Shown: positions 2,406 to 63,900, numbered from the stretch's first letter. The stretch is 64,000 nucleotides of DNA from Minisyncoccota bacterium (GCA_041664265.1 JBAYLD010000002.1:35505-99504); one strand, 5' to 3'. The notes: generated from the letters alone by a model not told the origin. A program made the numbers and translations.

Positions 2406-4154
2406 TTATTCTAACACTGCCTTGATACGCCGGACGCCGGCAGAGGACGCTTCTTCTTTCATAATCTTGAAATGACCAAGCTCAGCAGTGTTGTGCACAT
2501 GCGGCCCGCCGCAAAATTCTAGAGATGAACCGATGCGATAGACCGACACCATGTCGGGATATTTTGCACCAAACTCATGCTCAGCCCCGAGTTTCTCAGC
2601 CTCTTCTTTCGGTAGGGTAAGGTGTTCGACCGGCAGTGCCTGCTCAATCTGCTCGTTCACGATCTTCTCCACTTCTGCAATTTGCTCCGGAACCATCTTC
2701 TGTCCGTAGGAGAAATCAATGCGCAGGCGCTCGCCGGTGATATTGCTCCCCCGCTGGTGCACCTCGCTCCCAAGCACTCTTTGGAGCGCATTAAGGAGCA
2801 GGTGGTGCGCGGTGTGGAGCTTGGTGGTCGCCTCGCTCGCATCGGCGAGCCCGCCGGTAAACTTCTGTGCGGCGCCCGATCGCGAGAGCGCCTGATGCTC
2901 CGCCATCTTTGCCCGCACGACATCTATATCAATCGTGATACCGCGTTCTCTGGCGATTTCTTCAGTGAGTTCGATCGGGAATCCGTAGGTGGTGAAGAGC
3001 ATGAATGCATCAACGTTACTTCCCATCTTCTCCAGCTCGCGGAGGCCGTGTGAGAGCGTTTTCCTAAACTGCATTTCTTCTGCACGGAACTCGTCTTCAT
3101 GTCCTCCGGCAATCTCGCCGAGTATCGCCTCTTTAATACTGAGACGATCCATTTCGCGTATTGCGCGACGGATAAGGCGGCGCAGAACATATCCTTGCTC
3201 TGTGTTTGTAGGATGAAGTCCTGCATCAAACATGACGGAAGCCGCACGCACATGGTCCAAAATGATCCTGAACGCCCGAAGTTTGGACATCGTAAGTCCC
3301 GTATCTGATACGGGACTTACGATGTCCCTATATTGCATGCCCGAATGTTTTTCAAGCACCGCGCGCGCGGCATCAAAGGTGTCAATCAGAAAGACGTCAG
3401 AATTATCTCGTGTCGCCGCAGTCAGTCGCTCAAGGCCGCCGCCGAAATCGACGTTTTGTTGCGGGAGTTTGTCGAACGAGCCGCTCCCATTTTTCACATA
3501 CTCCATAAAGACCGAATTGCCGATCTCCATGAAGCGCCCACAATCGCAGTTCGGGTGGCACGTTTCTCCAAAGGCTGGGTCATGTGGCGTACCAAAATCA
3601 AAAAATATTTCAGAATCAGGACCGCCCAGCTCCCCTGCTGGCATCTTGTCAGGCGTACCGGAACGGCTCCACCAATTCTTCTTCGCATCATAAAAATGAA
3701 TGTGATCTTCAGGCACTCCTAATTTTTTCCAAATCTCTGCCGATTCGGTATCTCTTGGTAGATTAAACACTTCATCTCCGGCAAAGCAGGTCACCCAGAG
3801 CCGGTCCTTCGGGAGTTCGAGTTCTGTCGTTAAAAATTCGTAGAGCCACGGCAACTGCTCTTGTTTGAAATAATCCCCGAGCGACCAATTGCCGAGCATT
3901 TCAAAAAAAGTCGTGTGGCGATTGTCACCCACTTCTTCAATATCCTGTGCGCGGAAGCAGGTTTGTGAATTCGCTAATCGCTTCCCCGCCGAGTGCGGCT
4001 GGCCGAGAAGATATGGCACCAGGGGCTGCATGCCGCTGCTAGTGAAGAGCGTCGTCGGGTCGTTCTCGGGCACGATCGGTGCCGAGGGGATAATCGTGTG
4101 CCCTCGCTTGGCGAAAAACTCCAGATAGCGCCTGCGCACCTCGTTGACGGTCAT
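2406..4154 (-). CDS. alaS: alanyl-tRNA synthetase, short form (catalytic + tRNA-recognition + editing domains, lacks C-terminal C-Ala domain)
   Basis: N-terminus FFAKRGHTIIPSAPIVP...TLFTSSGMQ...FRAQDIEEVG; editing HTAHHLL and CGGPHV motifs; 582 aa vs ~870 typical. Confidence 0.85.
   Translation of the reverse strand: MTVNEVRRRYLEFFAKRGHTIIPSAPIVPENDPTTLFTSSGMQPLVPYLLGQPHSAGKRLANSQTCFRAQDIEEVGDNRHTTFFEMLGNWSLGDYFKQEQLPWLYEFLTTELELPKDRLWVTCFAGDEVFNLPRDTESAEIWKKLGVPEDHIHFYDAKKNWWSRSGTPDKMPAGELGGPDSEIFFDFGTPHDPAFGETCHPNCDCGRFMEIGNSVFMEYVKNGSGSFDKLPQQNVDFGGGLERLTAATRDNSDVFLIDTFDAARAVLEKHSGMQYRDIVSPVSDTGLTMSKLRAFRIILDHVRAASVMFDAGLHPTNTEQGYVLRRLIRRAIREMDRLSIKEAILGEIAGGHEDEFRAEEMQFRKTLSHGLRELEKMGSNVDAFMLFTTYGFPIELTEEIARERGITIDIDVVRAKMAEHQALSRSGAAQKFTGGLADASEATTKLHTAHHLLLNALQRVLGSEVHQRGSNITGERLRIDFSYGQKMVPEQIAEVEKIVNEQIEQALPVEHLTLPKEEAEKLGAEHEFGAKYPDMVSVYRIGSSLEFCGGPHVHNTAELGHFKIMKEEASSAGVRRIKAVLE
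3285..3327. repeat. 43-bp palindromic element (family A) inserted in frame in alaS, translated as DIVSPVSDTGLTMSK
   Basis: GGACATCGTAAGTCCCGTATC|GATACGGGACTTACGATGTCC; core also in leuS, uvrA, uvrC. Confidence 0.8.
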
Positions 4155-4216
4155 ATGACCAAAGTATCGTGCCCTGGCATTTTACGCAATGCAAAATAAA
4201 GCGTATATTGCGCATA

Positions 4217-6205: not shown

Positions 6206-6214
6206 ACTCCTTTT

Positions 6215-6235
6215 GATGGACACTCCGTGTCCATC
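6215..6235. repeat. palindrome GATGGACACTCCGTGTCCATC immediately upstream of ung RBS
   Basis: perfect 9-bp arms; lies between nuclease stop (6246) and ung start (6205). Confidence 0.6.
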
Positions 6236-6245
6236 ATTTTTTCGT

Positions 6246-13855: not shown

Positions 13856-16228
13856 CTATACCACAAGATTCAGGATCTTACCCGGGACGTAGACGACCCG
13901 CTTTGGCTCCTGCCCGCCGAGTGCTGCAGCGACTGTCGGGATCTTCAGTGCCTCAGCCGTTACTGCCTCCTCAGAGGCGTCCTGTGCGAGCGTGACCGAG
14001 CCACGACGCTTGCCGTTCACCTGTACGATGACTTCTTTTTCGCTCGCTACTATTACAACGGCTGCTGGCCATACCTGTTTGTGCACGCTCCCTTCCCCAC
14101 CGAGTTTTTCCCACAAATCTTCTGCGAGGTGCGGGGCGAAGGGCGCGAGCATAATCACTAGCTGAGCGAGAGTATCTTTGGAAATACTCTCCTGTTTCTC
14201 CAATTCGTTTACAAGAATCATGAGCGTTGAAATGCTGGTATTGAATTTAAAGCGATCACCGTCCTGCGCGACCTTCACGCTCGTGCGTGCGAGTGCTTGC
14301 TGTATTTCTGGACTTACGAAGTCCTTACATTCGGTTCCCGTATCTAGGGACTTCGTAAGTCCCTCTATATTCCGGTCCACGAGGCGATCAATTCGTTCCA
14401 AAAACTTCCGCATCGCAGCAACACCGTCGAGATTCCAGGGGTAGCTCCCTGGCTCGTTGTAAGGACCGATGAAGGCGAGATAGATTCGCACCGCATCGGC
14501 GCCATGCTTCTGCACAAACTCATCCGGATTAATGACATTCCCTTTTGACTTGCTCATCTTAGCTCCGTCGGGACCCATAATGAGCCCGCGATTAAAGCGC
14601 TCGGTGAATGGCTCTTCGACCGGCACGAGTGCGAGATCATAGAGCGCCTGCGTGAAGAAGCGCGCATAGAGTAGGTGCATCGTGGTGTGTTCGCTCCCGC
14701 CCGAATAGCGATTGATCGGCAGCCACTTTTTCATCAACTCAGTATCAGAAAAAGCATTTGAATCTTTGGGGTCAAGATAGCGCAAGAAATACCACGAAGA
14801 ATCCACGAACGTATCGAGCGTGTCATACTCTGGCGTCCAACCCTCGCCGAAGATGCGCGTGACGCGCTCCTGCAATTCTTTAGATGAGGCGAGGGGCGAC
14901 TTGCCGGTGGGAGTGAAGTCCGCATCAGTCGGCAGGAGCCAGGGCAGGTGTTCGGCCGGTATCGCGTGTGGAGTACCCTCCGGATCGTAGACAATCGGTA
15001 TCGGGCATCCCCAATATCTCTGCCGGCTCACGAGCCAATCGCGCAGGCGATATTGTGTCGCCTTCTCGCCCCCGATGCTCGCGACGGTATCCCAATCAAC
15101 AAATTCAGCCTCACGTATCGGCAGATTGAACTTCTCCGCGAATTCACGGTCCCGTTCATCATATGCAGGGACAGCCATGATACCACCGGTGCCATACGAA
15201 CCTAGGACGTAGTCGGCGACGTAAATTGGAATCTCTTCTTTTGTCGCTGGATTGACTGCCATGACACCCTCCAACTTCACGCCCGTCTTCTCTTTATTCT
15301 CACTCCGCTCCCGCTCAGTCTTCTTCTTGGTCGCTTCCACATATGCCTCAACTTCTTTCGCATTCATGAGGGGTTTACGAAACCCTTCATCTTGAAGCAG
15401 TGAATGCTCCGGAGCAAGCACGAGGTACGTCGCGCCGAAGATCGTATCGGGTCTAGTTGTAAACACTTCGATATACGGACTTACGATGTCCGTAGATTCA
15501 GAATCGGATGTTCTAACATTGAATTTTATCTTCGCACCTTCTGACTTCCCTATCCAGGCTCTCTGCGCCTCTTTAATCTCTTCGCGCCACGGGAGCGTGT
15601 CGAGCCCTGTGAGGAGCCGCTCAGCATGCTGGGTTATTTTTAAGAACCACTGCGTCAAACGTTTTTCTTCAACCTCTGTGCCGCAGCGCTCGCAGCAGCC
15701 GTCAAGTACCTGTTCATTAGCGAGTACGGTCAAACACTTCGGACACCATTTCACCGCTGCCTCTCGTCGCTCAGCGAGTCCGTGCTCAAAGAGCTTCGCG
15801 AAGAGCCACTGCGTCCACTGGTAATAGCTCGGCTCACAGGTCACCACTTCTTTACTCCAATCAAACGATGCGCCCATAGAGGCAAGCTGCTCGCGCATGC
15901 GTGTCATATTGGCGTAGGTCCACGCCTTAGGGTCCTCGCCATGCTTCATCGCCGCGTTCTCAGCCGGGAGTCCGAAGGCGTCAAAGCCGATCGGGAAGAG
16001 GACATTCTTCCCTTGTGCGCGCAGGAGGCGCGCATAGATATCGGTTACCGCGAAGGCATACCAATGGCCGATGTGCAGATCTCCCGATGGGTACGGGAAT
16101 TCAACAAGGAGGTAATACGGCTCCTTACCGCCAGCTGGCGGATCATCAGAGAGATCGGCACGATATAGATCAAGCTCCGCCCACTTCGCTTGGACTTTTT
16201 TTTCTATTTCTCGGTGGTCATACGCCAT
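13856..16228 (-). CDS. leuS: leucyl-tRNA synthetase
   Basis: HIGH motif PYPSGDLHIGHW, KMSKS, editing and anticodon-binding regions; 790 aa. Confidence 0.9.
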   Translation of the reverse strand: MAYDHREIEKKVQAKWAELDLYRADLSDDPPAGGKEPYYLLVEFPYPSGDLHIGHWYAFAVTDIYARLLRAQGKNVLFPIGFDAFGLPAENAAMKHGEDPKAWTYANMTRMREQLASMGASFDWSKEVVTCEPSYYQWTQWLFAKLFEHGLAERREAAVKWCPKCLTVLANEQVLDGCCERCGTEVEEKRLTQWFLKITQHAERLLTGLDTLPWREEIKEAQRAWIGKSEGAKIKFNVRTSDSESTDIVSPYIEVFTTRPDTIFGATYLVLAPEHSLLQDEGFRKPLMNAKEVEAYVEATKKKTERERSENKEKTGVKLEGVMAVNPATKEEIPIYVADYVLGSYGTGGIMAVPAYDERDREFAEKFNLPIREAEFVDWDTVASIGGEKATQYRLRDWLVSRQRYWGCPIPIVYDPEGTPHAIPAEHLPWLLPTDADFTPTGKSPLASSKELQERVTRIFGEGWTPEYDTLDTFVDSSWYFLRYLDPKDSNAFSDTELMKKWLPINRYSGGSEHTTMHLLYARFFTQALYDLALVPVEEPFTERFNRGLIMGPDGAKMSKSKGNVINPDEFVQKHGADAVRIYLAFIGPYNEPGSYPWNLDGVAAMRKFLERIDRLVDRNIEGLTKSLDTGTECKDFVSPEIQQALARTSVKVAQDGDRFKFNTSISTLMILVNELEKQESISKDTLAQLVIMLAPFAPHLAEDLWEKLGGEGSVHKQVWPAAVVIVASEKEVIVQVNGKRRGSVTLAQDASEEAVTAEALKIPTVAAALGGQEPKRVVYVPGKILNLVV
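14310..14363. repeat. 54-bp family-A palindromic element in frame in leuS (translated GLTKSLDTGTECKDFVSP)
   Basis: GGACTTACGAAGTCC...GGACTTCGTAAGTCCC; shares GAATGTAAGGACTTCG with uvrA copy at 63855-63876. Confidence 0.8.
15475..15493. repeat. 19-bp family-A half element ACGGACTTACGATGTCCGT in frame in leuS (translated TDIVSPY)
   Basis: same GGACATCGTAAGTCC core and same DIVSP peptide as alaS copy. Confidence 0.75.
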
Positions 16229-48830: not shown

Positions 48831-48851
48831 TGTGGACACCGGGTGTCCACA
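48831..48851. repeat. palindrome TGTGGACACCGGGTGTCCACA (family C)
   Basis: copy of element inside ung (5885-5905). Confidence 0.7.
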
Positions 48852-50353: not shown

Positions 50354-50424
50354 GTGGACCTACGGGGAGTCGGACCCCGACCTCGTGCATGCCATGCGCG
50401 CGTTCTACCGCTGAACTATAGGCC
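50354..50424 (-). tRNA. tRNA-Ala(GGC), atypical T-loop UCCGACU
   Basis: manual fold: acceptor GGGCCUA/UAGGUCC with G3:U70, D-stem GUUC/GAAC, anticodon loop AUGGCAU, T-stem CGGGG/CCCCG; one C-A mismatch in anticodon stem. Confidence 0.55.
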
Positions 50425-50539
50425 CGCTTTGTTTTTATATCTTACTTCCCTTTCCTCGCTTGCTCAAGCCGCGTTTGACTTTATTATACACTCATGCTAC
50501 TCTGCAAACAGAAAATAACCTGAATGAGGAGGTGTAGAA

Positions 50540-50980: not shown

Positions 50981-50992
50981 GAAGGGCGGCTA

Positions 50993-51024
50993 AGCCCGGC
51001 GTACTAGGTACGCTGGGCTTTTTC
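50993..51024 (+). terminator. rho-independent terminator
   Basis: GCCCGGCGTAC-TAG-GTACGCTGGGC then TTTTTCT. Confidence 0.65.
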
Positions 51025-51129
51025 TATAACGCGCACGATTCCCCTTCTCATGCATCTGCTTCTTCCAAATAATACGTTATAATCAAATGGGTGTTCTTGG
51101 GCTTAAAAATCAGTTAGAAAGGAGAATCT

Positions 51130-51261
51130 CGTGAAAGATAAAAAATACGAAAAACCGGTTTTTATCAAGATGACCAAGATGACGTTCCTGCTCAACAGCA
51201 TCAAAACGAAGGGAAAAGGCGTCGTTTGTAGGCAGTGTTCTGGATGCCACGGCTGTCGATA
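51130..51261 (+). CDS. 43-aa Lys-rich peptide with Cys-rich C-terminus (CRQCSGCHGCR); candidate precursor peptide or metal-binding peptide
   Basis: GTG start 6 nt after RBS AGAAAGGAGAA; TATAAT at 51077-51082; terminator follows; not in ORF track. Confidence 0.4.
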
Positions 51262-51295
51262 AACCTCAAAACTCGGCGAGAACACCTCCCTTACC

Positions 51296-51327
51296 AAGCC
51301 TTCGGTTACTCCGAAGGCTTTTATTAT
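51296..51327 (+). terminator. rho-independent terminator
   Basis: AAGCCTTCGG-TTACT-CCGAAGGCTT then TTTATTATTG. Confidence 0.7.
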
Positions 51328-51423
51328 TGAACCATTACGGGAGCTTGACTTTTTCATGGTGGTATGCTAAGCTTTATCAAGGCAATTTGATCTCTCAAAT
51401 GAACGTGAGAAGGAGGTGCGGAA

Positions 51424-51861
51424 GTGAAGAAAAAAGTTCTTTGTGTTTGCGCTGGTAATACCTGCCGGAGTCCTATGATGGCAGCCTTGCTCCAAAAGGA
51501 ACTCGGTAACGAGTTCCAGATGGAGAGCGCGGGTTGGTTCAGGAATCAAGTTGGCGAGCCAGCGAGCGAAAATGCTGTATTTTTTATGAGGGTCAGAGGT
51601 ATCGATATCAGTGAACATAAAGCTCGCTGGATCAGAGATCTCGATCTCAAAGCATTCTCGCATATTGTGTGTGTGAATCCTGACATGGCATACAACATCC
51701 GGTCCAATCTCGAAAACGATCAGACAATGGTTCTCATCGCTGGAGTAGAGGTCGGAGGAGTGCCGGACCCGTATGGAAAAGGAAGAGACGCCTATCGTGA
51801 GTGTGCAAACCTTCTAGATAAGGCCATGCACGAAATCGCCGCGATAATCCGCAACTCTTAA
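51424..51861 (+). CDS. low-molecular-weight protein-tyrosine phosphatase
   Basis: canonical CVCAGNTCRS P-loop; GTG start with RBS AAGGAGG. Confidence 0.7.
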   Translation: MKKKVLCVCAGNTCRSPMMAALLQKELGNEFQMESAGWFRNQVGEPASENAVFFMRVRGIDISEHKARWIRDLDLKAFSHIVCVNPDMAYNIRSNLENDQTMVLIAGVEVGGVPDPYGKGRDAYRECANLLDKAMHEIAAIIRNS

Positions 51862-53744
51862 ACAACTGAAGCCCGACGTGATGAACGTCGGGCTTTCTTT
51901 ATTACACGGACTATTCCGTTGGTGGCATCCACTTCGATAAGATCTCCTGTTTTCAAAATCTGCGTCGCAACTTTGGTCCCCACGATGCAAGGAATTTTGA
52001 ACTCTCGTGAGAGAATCGCCGCATGCGAGACAATACCCCCTTCGTCAGTCACGATGGCTACAGATCTCTTACACGCCGCTATCATATCCGGTTTCGTCAT
52101 ATCGGTAACTAAAACTTCTCCAGACTGCACCGCGTACACATCGCCCCGCCGCGTATGTTTCTCGAAAATCACTCGCGCCTTTCCTGTCACTTTCCCGGGA
52201 TATGCAATCGACCCGACGATGATCGCTTTATCTTTTGGAGACGTTAATTCCTTGACTCGATGCCAAAGCTGGTCTGCGTCCTTTTTCAAAAAGATTTCCG
52301 ATTGTTTCTTTTTCCTTAGAACAGCATGACCTCGAGTCCGTTCAGCGATTATTTGTGCAGGAACCTTCTTCCCCTCTTTTGCAAGAGCGGTGAGCTCGTC
52401 AAAATCGTAGAAAAAGAGCTCTCCAGCAACGCGTATTTTATTTCTTCTGGCGATCTCGCCTAGCAATTGCCCTATGTATAGAAAGAAAAATTCTTTGGAG
52501 CAGCGCCTGAGCTTTAAGCGAATTTCTCCTATTTTTTTGAATGTCCGGTGGTTTGCCTTAACTCTCTCGAATTTCTTCATCCGCGACGCTTCGGTTTTCG
52601 TATATATCGCGCTGAATTTTTCCATCACACAAGTTAATGAAACGAGGGTCTTACGCATTTTCTCATCACTCAGTTTCTTGAAGTCGACATTCTTAAATTC
52701 TTGAGTAATTCGCTTCACTGTCGCTGCTATATCCTCGGCACGTTCCAAATATCTCTCACGGTTTTTCTGTTTCGAGAAAAAGGCATACCCCTTTTTCTCC
52801 TCATTGTCATGAGAACCGTTCAGATAAAAACAGTGACACATCTTCTTTTTGTAGAAGAAGATACTGGAGTTGCCCAGGTCGTGATTCGGGTTGGTAAGCC
52901 AAAAGAGCGGCATGGAGTTCTCTCTTGCCCAAAATTCAGCACTCCTTATTTCCGGCAAGAATGGAGATTCTTGCCCTTCACGAAGAGTTGTAATCGGGCG
53001 GCTCTGCACAATCCAAAACTTTCCTTCGGCATATGCCCACTCGACGTCGACCGGGAAGCCGTAATGATTTTCTATTTTTATGACTAACTTTGCGAGCTCC
53101 TTAATCTGTTGTTCCGAAAGTTTTTGCTCTCCTTGTGCGGTAACATCAATCAACGTGAGGTTATTCTTCGCTACCACGTAGCTATCCGGCGTTACCTGCC
53201 CGGACACCAGCTTCTCTCCAAGGCCGGAGACTGCCTCGATGATCATCTGATTATGGTCTTCGGTTACTGGATGCACCGAGAAGGCGACACCGGCAGTCTC
53301 AGCTTCAACCATCTCCTGTACTACCACCGCAACTGAGATGTTCGCAGTGTCGAGTCCTTGTTCAGAACGGTAGGAGACAGCACGAATAGTGAAGAGGGAC
53401 TCCCAACATTTCTCTACGTTCTCGAGCAGGTTTTCTTCCGTGGTGTTCAAATAACTCTCCAGCTGCCCCGCCCACGACGCACTCTTCGAATCTTCTGCAG
53501 TCGCGCTCGAGCGCACCGCGACCCGCTTCACACCGAGTTCTTTAAAAGCCTTTTTAATTTCTCCTGCCACATCCTCTGACATTTTCCCCTCCCCTTTAAA
53601 CTTCTCATAAGCACTTGAGAGAATCACAAACCCAGGCGGGACCGGTATCCCCGCCCACGTCATCTCGCCCAAGGACGCGCCCTTCCCGCCCGCGATCGCA
53701 GTGTCGTCTTTGGTTATGTCTTCAAACCACCGTATCCATTCCAT
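51858..53744 (-). CDS. PEP-utilizing enzyme (PpsA/PPDK-like ATP-grasp + phosphohistidine swivel domain, no C-terminal PEP/pyruvate TIM barrel)
   Basis: N-terminal nucleotide-binding region; C-terminal GGIVSHAAILSREFKIPCIVG mobile-His domain. Confidence 0.7.
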   Translation of the reverse strand: MEWIRWFEDITKDDTAIAGGKGASLGEMTWAGIPVPPGFVILSSAYEKFKGEGKMSEDVAGEIKKAFKELGVKRVAVRSSATAEDSKSASWAGQLESYLNTTEENLLENVEKCWESLFTIRAVSYRSEQGLDTANISVAVVVQEMVEAETAGVAFSVHPVTEDHNQMIIEAVSGLGEKLVSGQVTPDSYVVAKNNLTLIDVTAQGEQKLSEQQIKELAKLVIKIENHYGFPVDVEWAYAEGKFWIVQSRPITTLREGQESPFLPEIRSAEFWARENSMPLFWLTNPNHDLGNSSIFFYKKKMCHCFYLNGSHDNEEKKGYAFFSKQKNRERYLERAEDIAATVKRITQEFKNVDFKKLSDEKMRKTLVSLTCVMEKFSAIYTKTEASRMKKFERVKANHRTFKKIGEIRLKLRRCSKEFFFLYIGQLLGEIARRNKIRVAGELFFYDFDELTALAKEGKKVPAQIIAERTRGHAVLRKKKQSEIFLKKDADQLWHRVKELTSPKDKAIIVGSIAYPGKVTGKARVIFEKHTRRGDVYAVQSGEVLVTDMTKPDMIAACKRSVAIVTDEGGIVSHAAILSREFKIPCIVGTKVATQILKTGDLIEVDATNGIVRVIKKARRSSRRASVV

Positions 53745-53765
53745 TTCTCAAGTATATACCGTTTG

Positions 53766-53838
53766 TGGACCCTAGCGGACTTGAACCGCTTACCTCGTCA
53801 ATGCGAATGACGCGCTCTACCAGATGAGCTAAGGGCCC
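53766..53838 (-). tRNA. tRNA-Ala(CGC)
   Basis: GGGCCCU acceptor with G3:U70, D-arm UAGCUCAUCUGGUAGAGC, anticodon loop UUCGCAU, T-loop UUCAAGU. Confidence 0.8.
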
Positions 53839-53968
53839 TGCACGAGCGATTCTACCACGACCCCCGATTATTTTCATCGCCCTGTCCCACCACAGTATGC
53901 ACCCGCCGGGGTTGCATCTTCACAGAAACTTCATGTTAGACTGCCGACAGAATAGTTATTTTGACATC

Positions 53969-53984
53969 GGCCGCTTCGGCGGCC
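53969..53984 (+). promoter_or_regulatory. GGCCGC-UUCG-GCGGCC tetraloop hairpin in 5' leader of hydrolase gene
   Basis: perfect 6-bp GC stem with UUCG loop, 33 nt upstream of ATG. Confidence 0.4.
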
Positions 53985-54016
53985 TTAACCTGAAGAGGAG
54001 AGAAAGGAGGAGAAAT

Positions 54017-55084
54017 ATGCGTAGAAAAATATTGGTCCCGAAAAGAACCCCTGTTGCACCCCTATTGCGGCCGTGGATAGCCTCAATGGAGTACTGGGCG
54101 ACAATGATGAACCTGCCCCAGCACGACTGGAGTACGCCGCATCGGGTTGTCGCCGAGTGTGCCAATGCCAAACTCTTATATTTTGGCGGCAAGAAAACTG
54201 GGCGAGTGATGCTTATTAACCCGCCACAGGCGAGCCATAGCTCAAGCGGTTGCGACTTCGGTCCCGGTCGCTCGCTGGTACAAACGGCGGTCGCGTCCGG
54301 TATCGGCGAAGTTTATGCCATTGACTGGAAGAGCGCCGGCTTCGACCGACGAAATGAAGATATCGGCGATTTCGTCACCACCATGTACTCGTTCATCGAC
54401 GGACTCGATCGTGATGTCGATCTCAACGGCGTGTGTCAGGGCGGATGGCAGGCGGCAATCTATGCCGCATTGTATCCGGAAAGGGTTAGAACTCTCACGC
54501 TCGTCGCCTCGCCCATAGATTTCCATGGCGGGGAGAGCAAAATATCTGAATGGGTCAACGCCCTGCCGGACATCTGGTTCCAGAATCTGGTCGCGATGGG
54601 AAATGGCGTTCTCGACGGACGTTATATCCTGTTGGCATTTAAGATGATGCATCCGACAGAGCGGTTTGTCGAAGACAATTGGAAGCTCTATCTGAGCATT
54701 CTGGAAGGGAGATGGGAGGAAGTGCAACAGCAAGTTCATTTTAGGTCCTGGTATGACCGGGCCGTACAGAACCTGCCGGGTTCCTTCTACCTCCAAGTGG
54801 TTCGCGAGCTGTTTAAGAAGAATTCGCTGGTCAGGGGCGAACTAGAGATCCTCGGGCAGCGGGTAGATCTGAAAAAGATAACCTGCCCGACATTTCTCGT
54901 AACGGGTGATACCGACGATATCACCCCAGATCCACAGGCCTGTGCAATGAAGGACTGTGTGAGCACAAGCTGTTCCTGCCGGCACTTTGAAGTCGAGGGC
55001 GGGCATTTCGCCACCTTCGCCGGAAGTGGCGCAATGGGAAGATGGAAGGAAGAGATCTTCCCCGCCATCAAAACGGCGGGGTAG
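54017..55084 (+). CDS. alpha/beta-fold hydrolase, PhaC/PhaZ-like (GxCxGG nucleophile elbow)
   Basis: GVCQGGW lipase-box-like motif; start at MRRKILVPK after RBS AAAGGAGGAG. Confidence 0.55.
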   Translation: MRRKILVPKRTPVAPLLRPWIASMEYWATMMNLPQHDWSTPHRVVAECANAKLLYFGGKKTGRVMLINPPQASHSSSGCDFGPGRSLVQTAVASGIGEVYAIDWKSAGFDRRNEDIGDFVTTMYSFIDGLDRDVDLNGVCQGGWQAAIYAALYPERVRTLTLVASPIDFHGGESKISEWVNALPDIWFQNLVAMGNGVLDGRYILLAFKMMHPTERFVEDNWKLYLSILEGRWEEVQQQVHFRSWYDRAVQNLPGSFYLQVVRELFKKNSLVRGELEILGQRVDLKKITCPTFLVTGDTDDITPDPQACAMKDCVSTSCSCRHFEVEGGHFATFAGSGAMGRWKEEIFPAIKTAG

Positions 55085-55141
55085 GATACGAAAAAAGCAG
55101 ATAAGGAGGAAAAGTGTACACAGAAGACGAGCGCACAGGGC

Positions 55142-55178
55142 GGTGATTGCAAGAACTACGCAATCACCGCTTTTTTGT
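55142..55178 (+). terminator. rho-independent terminator
   Basis: GGTGATTGC-AAGAACTAC-GCAATCACC then TTTTTTG. Confidence 0.75.
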
Positions 55179-55197
55179 ATTCTCACCTCTCTTTCAG

Positions 55198-55268
55198 TCG
55201 GGCCGCCGGGAATCGAACCCGGTTCTTGCGCACCCCATGCGCAAATACTGCCGGTATACTACGGCCCG
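55198..55268 (-). tRNA. tRNA-Pro(GGG)
   Basis: C1:G72 acceptor CGGGCCG, anticodon loop AUGGGGU, T-arm CCGGGUUCGAUUCCCGG. Confidence 0.8.
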
Positions 55269-55286
55269 TTATGGAGATGTCCTCTG

Positions 55287-55357
55287 TCGGGCCGCCGGGA
55301 ATTGAACCCGGTCTACACGCACCCGAAGCGTGCGTACTACCGACATACTCCGGCCCG
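55287..55357 (-). tRNA. tRNA-Pro(CGG)
   Basis: C1:G72 acceptor, anticodon stem CACGC/GCGUG, loop UUCGGGU, T-loop UUCAAUU. Confidence 0.8.
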
Positions 55358-55375
55358 ACACAGAACACCTCCCGA

Positions 55376-55393
55376 GTGCGCCCTGCAGGATTC
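55376..55393. repeat. 18-bp duplicate of tRNA-Val 3' end (GTGCGCCCTGCAGGATTC)
   Basis: identical to 55526-55543. Confidence 0.7.
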
Positions 55394-55526
55394 TTTCCTT
55401 ACAGGAACAGTATACCTTGCGGATTTTTTGTTCACATTCGTTCCAAAAAATGCTCGCAAGGTCTTCTCATCCTGCACGCACGCCCCCCAGGCGTGCTAGA
55501 GCGCACTACGCCTGAAGACATGCTTG

Positions 55527-55600
55527 TGCGCCCTGCAGGATTCGAACCTGCGACCTTACGCGTGTGAAGCGTACGCTCTAACCAACTGAGCTAAGAGCGC
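55527..55600 (-). tRNA. tRNA-Val(CAC)
   Basis: D-arm UAGCUCAGUUGGUUAGAGC, anticodon stem UACGC/GCGUA, loop UUCACAC, T-arm GCAGGUUCGAAUCCUGC. Confidence 0.8.
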
Positions 55601-55629
55601 GCACACGACGTACCATACCAGACATTTGC

Positions 55630-56589
55630 TTAGATTCCCAGATTCGCGAGCGCGCTCCTCACTCTGCCGATCGGCAGGGCGAAGCCGATGTTCTGCGAAC
55701 CCTGCACCATCGCGACGTTGACGCCGACGGCTTCGCCCGTAAGGTTGACCAAGGGGCCGCCCGAATTGCCGGGGTTGATAGCGGCATCGGTCTGAATGAT
55801 GCCGGTCAAGGTCTCGGTGTTGCCTTGGCTATCTGAAGCGGTAATGCTCCGATCGAGCCCCGAGACGACCCCGACAGAGACCGAGTTGCTATATTGTCCA
55901 AGCGCATTCCCCACCGCGAATACTGACTGTGCGAGCCGGAGCGCCGAGGAGTCGCCAAGCGGGACAACCGGATACCCGCTCCCAGGGATCTTCACAACGG
56001 CGAGATCCTCGCTCGAGGAGCGCCACACGACCGTGCCCGACTGCTGGGCGCCGCTTGAGAGCAAGACGGTATACGTCGCGTTCGGCACATTCGGCACGAC
56101 GTGCTTGTTGGTGACGATATACCCGCTTGAGCGCACGAGGAATCCGGTCCCGGCCGAGATGCGTTCGGTCGTCGTGCCGACCTGCTCATACACCGGCACC
56201 CGTATTCCAAAATCGCGGAAGAAGGGATCATTACCAAACGGGTTCTCGTACGTTACTTGTAGCTTCGGCACTTCTCGGCTCTCGACGATCGAGACGACTG
56301 CTGGCGTCACCCTCGCCACGGCATCTTGGAGCGATAGCGTCTCCTCCTTCTGCACCACAATCTCACGCCGCACGGTCTCGGTAATGTTCGCGGCGGTGTT
56401 CGGTGCCGTCGAGCTCGCGAGCTCGGCGAGCTGGATGACTGAACCTTGGAGCATCGCAATGGAGTCTTCGAGCGTCGCTACCGAACGCGCGAGCTGCCCC
56501 CTCTCCTGATTCTCGTACACGAGCCCGCCCGCGAGTGCCACTATCGCTAGTAACGCCGCGAGCCAGAGATAATCAATGGTATCCTTCAT
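55630..56589 (-). CDS. trypsin-like serine protease (HtrA/DegP-family S1C, no PDZ)
   Basis: GNSGGPLV catalytic Ser motif, TNKHVV His region, N-terminal TM. Confidence 0.75.
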   Translation of the reverse strand: MKDTIDYLWLAALLAIVALAGGLVYENQERGQLARSVATLEDSIAMLQGSVIQLAELASSTAPNTAANITETVRREIVVQKEETLSLQDAVARVTPAVVSIVESREVPKLQVTYENPFGNDPFFRDFGIRVPVYEQVGTTTERISAGTGFLVRSSGYIVTNKHVVPNVPNATYTVLLSSGAQQSGTVVWRSSSEDLAVVKIPGSGYPVVPLGDSSALRLAQSVFAVGNALGQYSNSVSVGVVSGLDRSITASDSQGNTETLTGIIQTDAAINPGNSGGPLVNLTGEAVGVNVAMVQGSQNIGFALPIGRVRSALANLGI

Positions 56590-56714
56590 TTTTCCTATTA
56601 TACCGGATGCCGGGAGAATCGGTGCCTCACGATCGTGAGTGCCCCCTTATCCGCATTTATGGGGTGCGTTACCACTATGAACTCATGCGTACGCCGCATA
56701 GATGATGGGGAGCT

Positions 56715-58265
56715 TCATTTTGAAACGGTGAAGAACTTTTGCGGGATCTCATGCGCCGCGACAATAGATTCATTCTGGCTGTTCCTCTTGAGGAGAATGA
56801 TCATGTCGGTATCGAGGTATACAGGAGCCCATTCCGGATCGAACACTTTGGTAGTGATAAATGCTTGGCCCCACGGCGTATAGTCCCGGTAATAAAATAA
56901 AATTGCGTTAAATGCATAGGTTTTTTCCAATTCTTTGAAGAGAGCGGGATTCTCCATTGCGGCGATATATTCCCCATCAACAAATCGTTTGGTGTACGCC
57001 TCTGGGCGATTGTCGAAAAAGACCTTCTCACCTGGGAAAAGGCCGAAAATGGCGTATCCACCACTATCGTAGTTATTAAAGAGCGGCCCCTTGATTTCAT
57101 TTGCCTTGAAGAATTCAATGGCGTCATGAGCCCCCTCTTTGACGCCAATCCCGAAGTCGCTGCTCCGTTGTACCACCAGCCCCAGGGCGAGCACCATACC
57201 AGCCATTGCGAGAAGAAAAAAGAGCGGGAATGCCAGCATTTCTTTTGTGAGGAACTTGAACCTGCCGACCCCGTGCTCGCGAATTATTTCTATATTCGTT
57301 ACGGTTGCGGCAACGCCAACCAAGCCGAAAAGAGGAAAGTCCCGTATGGCAAACCAGCCCATGACACCATAGACCGCACTCACGATGAGGAGTGGCGCTG
57401 ATATTTTCCTCCACTGGACAAACGCGGCCACGATAGAGCTTACGAGCACCAACGCGACCAAAATCTTGTATGCAGAGAACGTATACGGATTCCCCATGTC
57501 CAAATGCTCCAAAAAGCTGATTGATTGGTTTTCAAATACTCGGTAGCTATATGAATCAAAGATATGAAAGGGGTATAGTGCGCCGCGTATAAACGAAGGG
57601 TTTGCCAACATCACCAGACAGGCAGCCAGCAACACGCGACCGAGCGCAACAGCTTTCGAAAAATGCTTGCGCACGAGAGACGATAAGAAGAAAACGCCGA
57701 TGATGAATGGGCCGAGGATAAACCCGACGTGCAGGTTTACCCAGAGGAGCTGTACGGCCGGCATGAGCCAGAGCCATTTTTTATCTATACTCCCTTCATC
57801 ATATCGCAGACACACCCACAGGAAGAACGCGGCAAAGAGGTAGGTGAATACTTCTGGCCGTACTTCTGCGCGAGAGGCTATCACCACGATGCCAACACAC
57901 GAGATGGTAAATAGTATCCACGGATGCGCCCTGTCTCGAATGAGGTCAAAGATAAGCCAAAAGGCAGCCACCATGCCGGCAATATAGAGAATGGATAACC
58001 CGGAAAAACCAACGACGGTGAAGAATAGAAAAAAGATAACACCCGACAACCAATGATGATTAACGAAGGGTGTACCGCCTTCGGTATACGAATAATAATT
58101 TGTCGTTACTACCGCGGTTCTCTCCGCGGCGCTCCCGGTCAATACTATTTCCCCATTCTTAATATGCCGACCGAGATCCGCGGTAAAAAGGTCGATCTTG
58201 ACCATGAGAGAAACAGTAAGGACGCTTGCCAATGCCAAAAACAATATCTTCTGGTTGGTCGTCAT
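56715..58265 (-). CDS. polytopic membrane protein with C-terminal soluble domain (possible GT-C-type glycosyltransferase)
   Basis: more than 10 TM helices; start at MTTNQKILF to avoid overlap with tRNA-Ala. Confidence 0.45.
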   Translation of the reverse strand: MTTNQKILFLALASVLTVSLMVKIDLFTADLGRHIKNGEIVLTGSAAERTAVVTTNYYSYTEGGTPFVNHHWLSGVIFFLFFTVVGFSGLSILYIAGMVAAFWLIFDLIRDRAHPWILFTISCVGIVVIASRAEVRPEVFTYLFAAFFLWVCLRYDEGSIDKKWLWLMPAVQLLWVNLHVGFILGPFIIGVFFLSSLVRKHFSKAVALGRVLLAACLVMLANPSFIRGALYPFHIFDSYSYRVFENQSISFLEHLDMGNPYTFSAYKILVALVLVSSIVAAFVQWRKISAPLLIVSAVYGVMGWFAIRDFPLFGLVGVAATVTNIEIIREHGVGRFKFLTKEMLAFPLFFLLAMAGMVLALGLVVQRSSDFGIGVKEGAHDAIEFFKANEIKGPLFNNYDSGGYAIFGLFPGEKVFFDNRPEAYTKRFVDGEYIAAMENPALFKELEKTYAFNAILFYYRDYTPWGQAFITTKVFDPEWAPVYLDTDMIILLKRNSQNESIVAAHEIPQKFFTVSK

Positions 58266-58277
58266 GACAATTACGAG

Positions 58278-58350
58278 TGGACCGTACAGGATTCGAACCT
58301 GCGACCCCCGCATTGCAAATGCGGTGCTCTACCAACTGAGCTAACGGCCC
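58278..58350 (-). tRNA. tRNA-Ala(UGC)
   Basis: GGGCCGU acceptor with G3:U70, anticodon loop UUUGCAA, T-arm GCAGGUUCGAAUCCUGU. Confidence 0.85.
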
Positions 58351-58803: not shown

Positions 58804-58813
58804 GTTTTAAATA

Positions 58814-59795: not shown

Positions 59796-61127
59796 TCAAA
59801 TCAAAATTTGCACTCGCATCTCGCGCAAGTTTCTGCTTCTCGCTCTGCGATGACGTGCGAGAGAAAACCGATGTGCTTCAGAATTCGCCAGAACCGCGTC
59901 TGCTTCGCTTATTCCTGAAGTACGCGCTCCGATAACCTCGCGCGGGCGGTGCCGCTCGTCTTTCACCACAGCAACCACGGAGATCTTCATGCCAAACTCG
60001 ACAAGTACCGCCTCGGCCGCACGCTTCTGCGTGCGGCCGCCGTCTACGACGATCACTCGCGGAAACGGCCACTCGGGATGATTCAGTCGCCGTGTCAGAA
60101 TTTCCTTTAGCGAGGCAATATCATCATTTTTCATGTGGGACTTCGGAAGTCCCACATTCCCACGGATGCGGAATGTCCGATATTCTTTTTTCGCGGGAAC
60201 GCCATCTATGACCACCGTCATCACCCCAATCGCATTCGTACCCGAGAGGTGTGCAACGTCATATGCCTCAATCCGCAAGGTCCCGCGAGGTGTCACCTTA
60301 CGGCAACCGTAAGGTGACACCTCGCGGGACTCGTCCTTAATGAGCGAGACATCCTGGACATGATCGAGCGCGAAGAGCTCGCGGCGCCGCGCGGACGCGT
60401 CTTCGAAACGTTCTTCTTTAGCCGCGTGGCGCATTTCTTTTTCAAGCGCCAGACGCAACTCTTTGCCGCGCCCACTTAAAAAGAGCATCACATGACGAAT
60501 CGTGCGTCGATATTTTTTTGCATCAAACTCGCGCGGATATTGTTTGATTTGTTTATTGAATTCTATTTTTGCCTGATGATGTTTCCCGGGCGCTGTAACG
60601 GGCTTGGCTGTGTCAAAGAACGGAAATATCTTACGGATAAGCCGCAGAGCCTCTTTCAGCTGCGCCCCGCTCGGGAACGGCCCGTATATCGCGCGCAAGG
60701 TGACTCCTCGCAACAAGGTGACTCCTCGCCGCGAGGTGTCTCCTTGTTGCCCTTGTTGCTCTAAATCTTTGCCGCGCACGACAAGCACGCGCGGAATGTC
60801 TTCTTCGGTAATCACTGCATAAAGAAATGTCTTATCGTCCTTCCCTTCTGCATTCGCCGCCGGGTGATACTGCTTGATCAGCGCCGCCTCGCGCACGAGA
60901 GCCTCAAGCACCGTTGGGGTCGTCTCAAAGGCGACGCGATCGGCTTTGGTCACCATATCTACCACGCGCGGCCCGCGTGTTGCGATCAGGTCGTCATCAA
61001 AATAACTCCGCACCCGATCGCGGAGCGAAGTCGCCTTGCCAACATACAAGACTTTTCTGCCCTGCTTAAAGAGATACACCCCCGGGACATCCAGCAGATC
61101 AAACTTTTTTAGCTCGTTTCGTTGCAT
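59796..61127 (-). CDS. uvrC: excinuclease ABC subunit C, short form with in-frame repeat insertions
   Basis: GIY-YIG VPGVYLFKQGRKVLYVGKATSLRDRV; 443 aa; 29-nt overlap with uvrA. Confidence 0.8.
   Translation of the reverse strand: MQRNELKKFDLLDVPGVYLFKQGRKVLYVGKATSLRDRVRSYFDDDLIATRGPRVVDMVTKADRVAFETTPTVLEALVREAALIKQYHPAANAEGKDDKTFLYAVITEEDIPRVLVVRGKDLEQQGQQGDTSRRGVTLLRGVTLRAIYGPFPSGAQLKEALRLIRKIFPFFDTAKPVTAPGKHHQAKIEFNKQIKQYPREFDAKKYRRTIRHVMLFLSGRGKELRLALEKEMRHAAKEERFEDASARRRELFALDHVQDVSLIKDESREVSPYGCRKVTPRGTLRIEAYDVAHLSGTNAIGVMTVVIDGVPAKKEYRTFRIRGNVGLPKSHMKNDDIASLKEILTRRLNHPEWPFPRVIVVDGGRTQKRAAEAVLVEFGMKISVVAVVKDERHRPREVIGARTSGISEADAVLANSEAHRFSLARHRRARSRNLREMRVQILI
60134..60156. repeat. family-A palindrome TGTGGGACTTCGGAAGTCCCACA in frame in uvrC (VGLPKSH)
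   Basis: identical core to uvrA copy at 63822-63844. Confidence 0.8.
60282..60328. repeat. 47-bp family-B palindrome in frame in uvrC (REVSPYGCRKVTPRG)
   Basis: CCCGCGAGGTGTCACCTTACGG-CAA-CCGTAAGGTGACACCTCGCGGG. Confidence 0.8.
60696..60759. repeat. degenerate tandem/inverted family-B-like repeats in uvrC (QGDTSRRGVTLLRGVTL)
   Basis: CAAGGTGACTCCTCGC twice in tandem, then CGCGAGGTGTCTCCTTG. Confidence 0.6.
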
Positions 61128-63900
61128 GGCGTTTCAAGGCGTTGGCGAGATACTCGCCCGTATACGAACCCTGGGTGTCGGCAACCTCTTCGGGCGTACC
61201 CTTGGCGATAATCTTACCCCCGCCCGCCCCGCCCTCAGGGCCGAAGTCGATGACATAATCAGCACTCTTGATGATATCGAGATTGTGCTCAATGACAACG
61301 ACGGAGTTGCCGCGCCGCACGAGCTCCTGCAAGATCTCGATAAGCTTCTTCACATCCTCATAATGGAGACCGACCGTGGGCTCATCGAGGAGATAGATCG
61401 TCTTCATCGGCATAGGACGATAGAGCTCGCTCGCGATCTTGACCCTTTGAGCCTCGCCGCCGGAGAGCGTTGTCGCGCTCTGACCGAGAGTGAGGTATTC
61501 GAGCCCGGTCGCGTTGAGACTCGCGAGGCGGTCGGCAATCGCAGGGATGTCGCCGAAAAATTTCTCTGCCTCTTCGATGGTCATCTGGAGCACCTCATAA
61601 ATATTTTTGCCGCGATAGGTCACTTCGAGCGTCTCCTTCATAAAGCGTTTCCCTTCGCAGATATCGCAGGTGACATATACCGTCGGGAGGAAGTGCATCT
61701 CAACGGCGACCGAGCCATTGCCCTGGCACGCCTCGCAGCGGCCGCCAGGAACGTTGAAGGAGAATCGACCCGGCTTCCAGCCACGCGCACGTGCAGCGGC
61801 GGTCGAAGCGAAGAGATCGCGAATGTGCGTAAATGCGCCAGTGTAGGTCGCGGGGTTGCTGCGTGGCGTGCGGCCGATCGGCGATTGATCGATAAGCACG
61901 GCACGCCCGAGATATTCGGTACCGGTGAGTGATGCAACATGCTCAAGCTTCGTCTCGCGGCGAGTGAAGCGCGCGGCGATGTTGCGATGGAGAATATCGT
62001 AAAGGAACGTGGACTTCCCGCTCCCCGATACGCCAGTGATGCACACGAGCTTACCGAGCGGTACGTCAATATTCTGATTCACAAGATTGTGCAAAGTCGC
62101 GCCGCGCACCTTCAACCAGCCCTTCTCACTGATGCGGCGTTCTTCGGGCACGGGGATTTCTTTTTCTTGCCGCAGGTACGCGAGCGTGAGCGACTCCGCG
62201 GCGGAAGTCAGACTTCCTGACTTCTTCGCGGAGAGCAAATCATCGAGCCATCCGGCCGCGACAACCTTGCCGCCATGCACGCCTGCACCCGGTCCGATAT
62301 CCACGAGATAATCAGAAGAAAAGATAGTTTCTTCATCATGCTCGACCACAATGATCGTGTTGCCGAGCTCTTTGAGCGTAAGGAGCGTTTTGATGAGACG
62401 ATCATTGTCGCGCTGGTGCAGACCGATAGTTGGCTCATCAAGCACATAAAGGGCGCCTGTGAGTCCAGATCCAAGCTGGGACGCGAGGCGAATCCGCTGA
62501 GCTTCGCCTCCAGAAAGAGTAGCCGCCGAGCGGTTGAGTGTGAGGTAGTCGAGGCCGACATTCAGCATAAAGGTGAGGCGGCTCTCGATCTCCTTCAATA
62601 TCGGCATCGCGATATCGAATTTCATATCTGAGAGCTCGATAGTGTCTATAAAATCTTTTGCTTCTCTGATGGACATATTTGTAAAATCCACAATGTTCAC
62701 TCCGAGCCCATGTTTGGACTTCGTAAGTCTGGATTCAGAGGAGGACTTACGAGGTCCTTTCATTCCTGTGCTTTGCAGATACACGCGCAGCGACTCCGGC
62801 CTCAGGCGCTTCCCCTCGCACACCGGACACGGCTCTTCAGAGAAGAGCGACGCGGTACCGAGCCCGTGGCACTCCGGACACGCGCCATAGGGCGAGTTGA
62901 ATGAGAAGAGGCGCGGCTCCACCTCGGGGAATGACGCGCCATCTTCGGGACAAATAAATTTTGAAGAAAGAGTTTCCAACGTTCCATCAGCATGCTTTAT
63001 CTTCACCAAACCATTCGCCTCTTTGAGCGCGAGTTCGAGCGCCTCAGAGAGGCGCTCGCGCGCATTCGCCGTCGCGCGGGAGAATTCAGAGACGAAGATG
63101 GTGTCAACGACCGCGTCAATGTCGTGGCGCTTGTTCCGATCAAGCTCGATCTTCTCACGAAGCGACTGCGACTTGCCGTCGATCACGACGCGCTCATAGC
63201 CCTTGCCGAGAAGATCGTAGAGCAGTTGATAGTATTCACCCTTGCGCCCCACAACGACCGGCGCATAAATAGTCACAGCAGTCTTATCAACCGCGACACC
63301 CATCACTACAGGCGCTCCACAAGTCAGACTTCCAGAATCCGTATGTGAAGTCTGACTTCCTAAGTGCCTTTTTGCTTCCACTCTCTCAAACACCATTTTA
63401 ATCATCTCCTCCTTCGAGAGCCGCACGATCGGCACATCGTGGTGGATGCAGTAGGGCTGGCCCGCGCGCGCATAGAGCACGCGCAAATAATCATAAATCT
63501 CGGTCACCGTCGCAACCGTCGAACGCGGATTATTCGAGCGGCTCTTCTGGTCAATCGAGATGGCCGGCGAGAGGCCGGTGATCTCGTCGACGTCCGGCTT
63601 CGCCATTTGGTTCAAAAATTGCCGGGCATAGGCCGAGAGCGACTCGACGTAGCGTCGCTGGCCTTCTGCAAAAATAGTGTCGAAAGCGAGCGAACTCTTC
63701 CCCGAGCCCGAGAGCCCCGTAATAACCGTCATCGCCCCGCGCGGCATCGCGACATCGATATTCTTTAAATTATGGGTACGCGCGCCCTTCACGACGAGCC
63801 AGTCGCTCCCGTGCTTTGACGTGTGGGACTTCGGAAGTCCCACATCTGATGTGTGACTTCCGAAGTCCTTACATTCTTTGGTTTTGGTTGATTTCTTCAT
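61099..63900 (-). CDS. uvrA: excinuclease ABC subunit A
   Basis: two ABC ATPase modules (Walker [10 protein letters not shown] and GVSGSGKST), zinc-finger Cys pairs; 933 aa. Confidence 0.9.
62716..62757. repeat. family-A palindromic element in frame in uvrA ([16 protein letters not shown])
   Basis: GGACTTCGTAAGTC...GGACTTACGAGGTCC. Confidence 0.75.
63321..63366. repeat. family-A-related inverted/direct repeat in uvrA ([15 protein letters not shown])
   Basis: AGTCAGACTTCC...GAAGTCTGACTTCC. Confidence 0.6.
63822..63876. repeat. 55-bp family-A palindromic element in frame near uvrA N-terminus ([18 protein letters not shown])
   Basis: TGTGGGACTTCGGAAGTCCCACA + GACTTCCGAAGTCCTTACATTC. Confidence 0.8.

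Follow-up and report, generated by a model that had tools for sequence, protein, structure and literature searches.

The 64,000-nucleotide stretch of DNA analysed here (the window; GCA_041664265.1 JBAYLD010000002.1:35505-99504, with positions counted from its first letter) comes from a Minisyncoccota bacterium and carries repeated copies of a short palindromic DNA element, designated family A, inside the genes for alanyl-tRNA synthetase (alaS), leucyl-tRNA synthetase (leuS), UvrC (uvrC) and UvrA (uvrA). The source is a very small bacterium from groundwater, a member of the Kaiserbacteria group within the candidate phyla radiation (CPR). Its closest named relatives by UvrA, LeuRS and AlaRS are Kaiserbacteria, and identical proteins are filed under Candidatus Paceibacterota.

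The core of family A is a 15-nt palindrome of the form GGACTT-NNN-AAGTCC. When the 64-kb window was searched with GGACTTNNNAAGTCC at no more than one mismatch, 10 matches were obtained against 0.12 expected, a number which none of 100 shuffles reached. The bare octamer GGACTTCG was not significantly enriched in the window (six observed against 2.6 expected), indicating that the signal is carried by the full palindrome. The matches start at 3285 and 3313 in alaS, at 14310, 14348 and 15477 in leuS, at 60138 in uvrC and at 62716, 62743, 63826 and 63854 in uvrA, and all 10 units were found to lie inside the intact reading frames of these four minus-strand genes. They are arranged as four doublets (units spanning 3285-3327, 14310-14362, 62716-62757 and 63826-63868) and two singles (15477 and 60138), so that four of the six elements in the window are doublets; no direct pairs occur.

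The original prediction, made from the sequence of the window, had counted at least seven copies of the element; its recurrence was borne out and the count is corrected to 10 core units. Two copies had been assigned to leuS, where family A is indeed present, accompanied by an additional third, variant unit, GGGTTTACGAAACCC. Six copies had been placed in the 4 kb of uvrC-uvrA, and here the clustering stands while the content is revised to five family-A units (three elements), two family-C inserts and two family-B inserts, B and C being further palindrome families described below. The peptides said to be shared between unrelated proteins were all recovered in the translations, with DIVSP appearing as RDIVSPV in AlaRS and TDIVSPY in LeuRS, ECKDF as TECKDFVSP in LeuRS and KECKDFGSH in UvrA, and VGLPKSH in both UvrC and UvrA.

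Anatomy of the family-A element

The basic unit of 15 bp often continues into ATG-nnn at one side and into nnn'-CAT at the other, the variable triplets being mutually complementary, as in the perfect 25-mer ATGTGGGACTTCGGAAGTCCCACAT of uvrC. The usual full element is a doublet of 40-55 bp in total, in which two units stand in inverted orientation (centre CGT, then ACG) 10-13 nt apart. Spacers of 13 nt are usually palindromic themselves (nnnATCWGATn'n'n'), the whole element then forming a perfect palindrome of ~43 nt, and the inner spacer triplets co-vary (ATC/GAT, CTC/GAG, ACC/GGT, CCC/GGG and CGT/ACG). Substitutions in the arms are mirrored about the centre of the doublet and not inside the unit, as was observed in alaS (GGACAT...ATGTCC), at L005:4385 and in uvrC of L003 (L and P numbers label the loci and orthologous proteins compared). 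It is thus the doublet which evolves as a unit. In other genomes, roughly every second independent site also has an asymmetric, non-palindromic 3' tail, AAACATGGGC, and this tail belongs to the element since it is missing from empty sites.

The doublet can fold as one long hairpin, with energies of -18 to -36 kcal/mol. Predicted RNA hairpins of family A range from -16 to -36 kcal/mol, and over all palindrome families values down to -53 kcal/mol (family B, uvrC) and z-scores down to -10.7 were obtained. An Rfam scan of the window returned six tRNAs only, and the element hairpins match no known RNA family. These six tRNA genes are encoded on the minus strand within 50355-58350, with three of them clustered at 55198-55600.

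Insertion into housekeeping genes

The original prediction had further proposed, as a check, that the palindromic segments should prove to be insertions of lengths divisible by three. This was supported by comparison with distant references (Geobacillus UvrA, 2r6f, and Thermus LeuRS, 1h3n), against which most of the segments are extra, and with sets of close orthologues (30 UvrA, 84-90% identical; 30 LeuRS, 75-80%; 31 AlaRS, 70-81%). Four segments of UvrA (aa 1-31, 172-204, 375-397 and 560-568) were found to be without counterpart in Geobacillus UvrA. Among the close orthologues, the UvrA, LeuRS and AlaRS segments are each present in some and missing in others, the majority being without them, and other close orthologues possess different inserts, including palindromic ones, at exactly the same loops. 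Codon alignments with 'empty' relatives gave net insertions of +48, +42, +48 and +15 nt in uvrA and of +21 nt in uvrC, every one of them a multiple of 3. With a mean pLDDT of 35, an AlphaFold2 model of UvrA built on 30 aligned sequences was unusable, and inserts were placed on the fold by sequence alignment to PDB chains only.

The hot-spot loops of UvrA hold several unrelated inserts across genomes in the alignment of 30 orthologues. At least six different inserts, including GLKPRKTEVRPNISEGNV, HQARNSKQAPSTKFESP and DSEKSDFKNSKKSDFSESP, were identified in the loop at aa 375-397 alone, a sign that sequence may have been inserted or replaced there repeatedly and independently.

Recurrence of the motif elsewhere, as had been anticipated, was established both in the same genome and in other Kaiserbacteria, where unrelated genes carry it. 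Further family-A units were located in the 20 kb adjoining the window, in uvrB, in tgt and in one intergenic spacer, giving 13 family-A units and two variant units in 84 kb of this genome (window and flanks), a density which by extrapolation from these 84 kb amounts to roughly 100 or more units per genome. An intergenic 25-mer of the same genome (L058:3056-3080) is identical to the 25-mer ATGTGGGACTTCGGAAGTCCCACAT of uvrC. The genome carries its own family-A subfamily, centred on CGG/CCG, which occurs four times in the 84 kb and is missing from 374 kb of other genomes (a comparison biased by the selection of those loci through CGT/ACG doublets); the variant GGACAT/ATGTCC is common to alaS and leuS. 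In tgt, a single family-A unit is accompanied by a doublet of the variant GGACGT/ACGTCC (L058:6890-6975, outside the window) with the same CATGGGCT tail and the peptide KDVVRPDDIMSGRTTSRHG. The same tgt site carries a GGACTT doublet in other genomes, and the variant therefore reflects either compensatory changes made in concert in the four arms or the substitution of a sister family for the original one. In LeuRS orthologues, peptides such as RTSDV...TSDVR resemble this GGACGT variant.

Scanning of 185,579 species genomes for exact doublets identified 16 DNA stretches, of which 12 are titled Kaiserbacteria or Paceibacterota and four are metagenome-assembled genomes titled 'uncultured Candidatus Saccharibacteria' or 'bacterium'. 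Scanned for the exact doublet in the same way, a metagenome collection gave 35 contigs and a viral collection gave none. A phage origin is without support, there being zero copies on viral contigs. The density of copies differs between loci, with seven perfect family-A units in the 18.8 kb of L002, which belongs to a different genome, and none in L001. After removal of duplicates, 44 of 45 distinct doublets were located inside open reading frames (ORFs) of at least 120 aa. The hosts comprise at least 17 housekeeping gene families, including, beyond those of the window, UvrB, TGT, Dus, TrmD, LysRS, GluRS, DNA polymerase III delta' (HolB), DHFR, ATP synthase gamma, a class-V aminotransferase and an epimerase; one family-A site was found upstream of ddl.

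Identical DNA is read, according to its phase, as GLRKS/GLTKS, DFVSP or TYEV, with GLxKS and DFxS(P) as the general forms of the first two. Since one DNA is read in two or three frames, conservation must act at the level of the nucleic acid. CGT-centred units never stand in the one phase that yields a stop (ACT TCG TAA), and judged from these sequences the elements appear to be read through by the ribosome. The tail is oriented in sense with the host gene in 27 cases and antisense in two (about 11 against 2 when counted by independent site), and the host genes lie on the G-rich strand, which is probably the leading strand. Both features would fit a strand-biased insertion into single-stranded DNA, a fit for which the orientation of the genes and peptide-level selection are confounding factors.

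The host genes and the individual palindromic inserts of the window are listed in Table 1.

Table 1. Host genes and palindromic inserts in the window.
Feature	Position	Strand	Description
AlaRS gene (alaS)	2406-4154	-	Pfam
LeuRS gene (leuS)	13856-16228	-	Pfam
UvrC gene (uvrC)	59796-61127	-	Pfam
UvrA gene (uvrA)	61099-63900	-	Pfam
Family-A doublet, alaS	3285-3327	-	Perfect 43-bp palindrome GGACATCGTAAGTCC-CGTATCTGATACG-GGACTTACGATGTCC; encodes RDIVSPVSDTGLTMSKL
Family-A doublet, leuS	14310-14362	-	Reversed unit order (ACG...CGT); encodes EGLTKSLDTGTECKDFVSP
Variant unit GGGTTTACGAAACCC, leuS	15371-15385	-	Flanks ATGA.../...TCAT; encodes GFRKP
Single family-A unit, leuS	15477-15491	-	GGACTTACGATGTCC; encodes TDIVSPY
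Single family-A unit, uvrC	60133-60157	-	Perfect 25-bp palindrome ATGTGGGACTTCGGAAGTCCCACAT; encodes (N)VGLPKSH(M)
Family-A doublet with AAACATGGGC tail, uvrA aa 375-397	62706-62757	-	Each core decayed by 1 nt
Family-A doublet, CGG/CCG-centred subfamily, uvrA N-terminus	63822-63875	-	+48 nt against empty orthologues
Family-C doublet (GAAGTC-N-GACTTC cores), uvrA aa about 178-197	63310-63369	-	Net +42 nt against L001
Single family-C unit GGAAGTCAGACTTCC, uvrA aa 560-568	62203-62217	-	Net +15 nt against three orthologues
Family-B doublet (AGGTGWCACCT cores), uvrC	60280-60330	-	Perfect 51-bp palindrome; encodes VSPYGCRKVTPRGT
Decayed family-B repeat, uvrC	60698-60750	-	Encodes DTSRRGVTLLRGVTL; 10-aa insert against L001
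Intergenic family-B doublet	18014-18056	.	Perfect 43-bp palindrome between called genes
Family-B single palindrome TCCGTAAGGTGACACCTTACGGA	1351-1373	.	Located at gene end

The alaS doublet runs on into a tail-like sequence, AAACTTCGGG, on the gene strand, to about position 3275. Its predicted RNA hairpin has an energy of -36.1 kcal/mol (z = -9.7), its arm mutations (GGACAT / ATGTCC) are those mirrored about the doublet centre, and it is variably present among the 31 AlaRS orthologues, adding 13 aa in comparison with the shortest of them. AlaRS itself is a shortened host protein of 582 aa, a typical bacterial AlaRS having roughly 870 aa.

The leuS doublet (hairpin of -32.5 kcal/mol) is missing in most of the 30 close LeuRS orthologues and common to P0122 and P0125; it shows no difference in length to Thermus LeuRS and is an insertion only with respect to the close orthologues. 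The single leuS unit at 15477 forms an 8-aa insert relative to Thermus LeuRS. As the orthologue P0158 has a full doublet peptide, GLTMSKHENPESRDIVSPY, at this site, the single unit is probably half of a former doublet. The site of the variant unit reads GFRKS, GFTKS, WLTMS or DIVSP in orthologues. Many LeuRS orthologues of the clade (P0126, P0128, P0133, P0138 and others) are about 950-1130 aa long and carry a NUDIX domain (PF00293), with some of the long orthologues also carrying alpha/beta-hydrolase domains, which suggests domain insertion or fusion in LeuRS of related Paceibacterota.

At the family-A site of uvrC, the window has the single unit (net +21 nt against the empty orthologue L001), L002 and L014 have a doublet, L003 has a doublet and an extra unit, and L001 is empty. 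UvrC is 443 aa long, and the only domains detected in it were GIY-YIG and the RNase H-like endonuclease. The uvrA doublet at aa 375-397 is a net addition of 48 nt with respect to the empty orthologues L001 and L003 and is without counterpart in Geobacillus UvrA; the same insert occurs with perfect cores in L002, L011, L012 and L014. The N-terminal uvrA doublet, with a hairpin of -32 kcal/mol, is a clean addition of 48 nt against three empty orthologues. UvrA lacks a segment of ~115 aa matching Geobacillus UvrA residues 303-419.

Family B (cores AGGTGACACCT / AGGTGTCACCT; AGGTGWCACCT) follows the same doublet design and includes perfect palindromes of 43-51 bp. Two of its sites are in frame in uvrC and three lie between genes (including L060:19940-19974); the perfect uvrC doublet has a hairpin of -52.6 kcal/mol. 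The cores of family C (GAAGTC-N-GACTTC) consist of both hexamers of the CGG-centred family-A core in swapped order. Family C fills two uvrA loops in the window and the same loops in other genomes (L003:8182-8221; L062:1138-1190 and 1724-1782), where perfect arms of 21 and 24 nt occur in one genome. The insert at 63310-63369 is also present in L003, and the same loop of L062 holds the perfect family-C doublet with 21-nt arms. A further perfect palindrome, TGATGGACACTCCGTGTCCATCA, was found twice in this genome, near the start of a uracil-DNA glycosylase ORF (window 6214-6236) and between dnaK and dnaJ (L060:18164-18188), and TGTGCATACCGGGTATGCACA and TGTGGACACCGGGTGTCCACA are intergenic (window 17300-17320 and 48831-48851). 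These three may be further families or terminators.

Origin and spread of the copies

The copies are dispersed repeats at the DNA level and insertions with respect to orthologues, in frame, without stop codons and translated, with the doublet as their unit and with genome-specific subfamilies. They were pasted into many unlinked places, and those which persist occupy tolerant loops of housekeeping proteins. It is probable that they belong to a lineage-specific family of very short, nested-palindromic repeats of Kaiserbacteria/Paceibacterota which is non-autonomous, intragenic and translated and works like the REPINs or the Rickettsia palindromic elements (RPEs). We infer mobility from the distribution of the copies and not from observed movement. 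Copying between loci would proceed through a step dependent on a hairpin or on single-stranded DNA, of the REPIN/RAYT or IS200/IS605 type, or alternatively through a templated copy made by strand switching. Conversion (template switching) or selection favouring the hairpin could then preserve the symmetry of the doublet, and reoccupation of the same loops may be due to purifying selection everywhere else or to a preference for existing palindromes as insertion sites.

Several observations weigh against this reading. Pfam showed no transposase domain in any gene called over 84 kb of this genome, and a crude and weak regular-expression scan (HUH...Y) of 557 kb found no HUH/Y1-like motif. Comparison of filled with empty sites yielded neither a target-site duplication nor a sharply bounded left end. 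Rather than being purely added, the insert seems to stand in place of 3-5 host codons at uvrA site 3 and the uvrC site, and some hot-spot inserts, such as the long GLKPRKTEVRPNISEGNV of L061, have no detectable palindrome. Many copies are old and common to orthologues, so that recent transposition is not shown by them. Loci of other genomes were found by means of the CGT/ACG doublet, and statements on the conservation of the core and on the absence of CGG centres are biased accordingly. A large serine recombinase of 525 aa (PF00239) is encoded at L002:17020-18597, a few kb from the stretch with seven perfect family-A units; it was dismissed as a mobiliser and is probably unrelated machinery of the island or prophage type.

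An origin of the palindromes in place is considered unlikely. In this case template switching or fold-back synthesis would have perfected quasi-palindromes of the loops, and the likeness between loci would be due to convergence or occasional gene conversion. Hierarchical palindromes with centre-mirrored mutations are what template-switch conversion yields (discussed for coding palindromes in PMC6649704), and the repeated striking of the same loops by different palindromes, together with the lack of a transposase in the sequence scanned, speaks for such an origin. Against it stand the identical cores of 15-25 nt, the non-palindromic 10-nt tail and the diagnostic subfamily mutations, all found again in 17 or more unrelated genes as well as between genes. 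Copying between loci must therefore have taken place to some extent, since convergence cannot yield shared cores, tail and subfamily mutations, while template switching probably contributes to the symmetric copies.

It is also quite unlikely that the repeats are kept because they are useful, be it as a basic loop in proteins that bind nucleic acids or as a signal in DNA or RNA (for uptake, protein binding, RNase III or pausing), instead of being selfish or neutral DNA. Many of the hosts bind tRNA or DNA (aminoacyl-tRNA synthetases, TGT, Dus, TrmD, UvrABC and HolB), the encoded peptides are basic (K/R/S-rich), the cores are perfectly conserved in some genomes and the tail is mostly in sense. 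The bias toward hosts binding nucleic acids is weak evidence, however, because small candidate-phyla genomes are dominated by informational genes, and most orthologues do without the inserts. Against a protein module speak the unrelated peptides which one DNA gives in different frames (GLRKS, DFVSP and TYEV) and the copies between genes. Uptake sequences such as the Neisseria DUS and the Haemophilus USS arise by point mutation and are spread evenly, whereas the copies in the window are clustered in four of ~65 genes and are all insertions with respect to orthologues.

That the elements remain untranslated, being skipped by the ribosome (as with the byp elements of Magnusiomyces mitochondria or the hop in gene 60 of phage T4) or removed from the mRNA, is very improbable. 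Their size (27-55 nt) and palindromy resemble byp elements (PMC6649704), and very stable hairpins within coding regions would suit a bypass. Elements that are bypassed or spliced out would, however, escape constraints on frame and stops, and such constraints are evident here, with net lengths which are all multiples of 3 (15, 21, 42, 48 and 48 nt), with 44 of 45 doublets in open frames that continue into homologous protein before and after them, and with avoidance of the stop-giving phase in CGT-centred units. An artefact of assembly or library preparation, in the form of inverted chimeras, is scarcely credible even though the data derive entirely from metagenome-assembled contigs, as the ENA k141_464617 and JGI Ga0376277_0000960 assemblies are identical over 22.8 kb including the elements, the same insert is found at orthologous sites in assemblies of many different studies, and frames are always kept.

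Relation to known repeat systems

Among known systems, the elements appear on comparison to be closest to RPEs in behaviour and to REPINs in architecture. RPEs (Ogata et al., 2000; summary in PMC10969869) are about 100-150 bp long and are found in Rickettsia (Alphaproteobacteria). Likeness to them, put forward in the original prediction, lies in the presence of palindromic DNA translated in frame in unrelated housekeeping genes, in the shared peptides, in the several families per genome and in the decay of old copies. As an analogue of RPEs the elements can be retained; as members of the RPE family they cannot, measuring 15-55 bp against about 150 bp and occurring in a different phylum. The units here are of 15-25 bp, with doublets of 40-55 bp composed of two nested 15-bp palindromes, and among the 185,579 species genomes exact doublets were found only in Kaiserbacteria/Paceibacterota assemblies, the four with other titles aside; a relationship to RPEs in sequence is not expected.

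With the repetitive extragenic palindromic sequences (REPs) and their doublets, the REPINs (PMC3116915, PMC3337134), the elements share a short, imperfectly palindromic unit, inverted doublets with a less conserved spacer which act as one hairpin and as the copied unit, subfamilies peculiar to a genome and, within one lineage, an inheritance that is mostly vertical. REP/REPIN sequences are mobilised by RAYT transposases, are almost entirely extragenic (14 of 1,067 overlap genes in SBW25) and have a spacing of 71-110 bp. REPs reach hundreds of copies per genome, with which the roughly 100 or more units extrapolated here from 84 kb may be compared. Here, in contrast, 44 of 45 distinct doublets and all 10 window units are intragenic, and the elements are only 40-55 bp long. 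REPINs have in their genome a single-copy RAYT gene, coding for an HUH/Y1 transposase, which is usually flanked by REPs; none was found here among the called genes of 84 kb or by the crude scan of 557 kb.

The MITEs of bacteria (miniature transposable elements with inverted repeats), such as Correia, ERIC and Nezha (PMC10969869), are likewise small, non-autonomous inverted-repeat elements which are occasionally in frame inside genes. In MITEs an internal segment is enclosed by terminal inverted repeats, the target site is duplicated and the parent insertion sequence can be recognised, whereas here the whole element is palindromic, no duplication or parent was seen and the left ends are fuzzy at the filled and empty sites. 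Since at least one defining feature each of RPEs, REPINs and MITEs was not borne out, membership in any of the three does not appear supported by this comparison; a way of working like that of REPINs or RPEs is retained.

More distant likenesses were also noted. The coding palindromes of Nematomorpha mitochondria (PMC6649704) are perfect inverted repeats with both arms coding and with dynamic gain and loss, and conversion has been proposed for the identity of their arms; they are locus-specific, reach 284 bp and encode conserved protein regions, whereas the elements here form a dispersed repeat family. The byp elements of Magnusiomyces are skipped by the ribosome (PMC6649704), while those described here keep the frame and are without stops. 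PARCELs, too, are coding sequences of dyad symmetry that have spread inside genomes and from one genome to another, but there a 25-residue domain is repeated in tandem in accessory proteins of unknown function, often membrane proteins, and the elements here are isolated inserts in the loops of core enzymes.

In the open-access literature on palindromic or repeat elements in Patescibacteria, the candidate phyla radiation and Kaiserbacteria, no such elements were found to be described. A wider proposal is offered tentatively, as a plausible possibility short of a favoured one. Families A, B and C and the GGACGT variant may represent previously undescribed, ultra-short nested-palindromic replicators of Kaiserbacteria and their relatives, adapted to gene interiors in genomes with almost no intergenic space. 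They would occupy the same loops of essential enzymes again and again, their symmetry would be kept by conversion, they would be a major source of protein-length variation in the CPR, and they would perhaps be moved by a single-strand hairpin transposase.

Selfish palindromes in frame have so far been seen largely as a Rickettsia curiosity and REP/REPIN sequences as extragenic by definition, while here a REPIN-like design is found almost wholly within essential genes of an ultra-small candidate-phyla bacterium. Where candidate-phyla proteins are aligned, placed in trees or annotated by domain, the elements can mislead, and they are possible strain markers. They explain much of the variation in length among orthologous UvrA, UvrB, UvrC, aminoacyl-tRNA synthetases and tRNA-modification enzymes in this group. 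With many natural filled and empty alleles in public metagenomes, they constitute an accessible system for the spread of hairpin repeats and the upkeep of palindromes in coding DNA, and one which could show how ribosomes handle hairpins of -30 to -50 kcal/mol.

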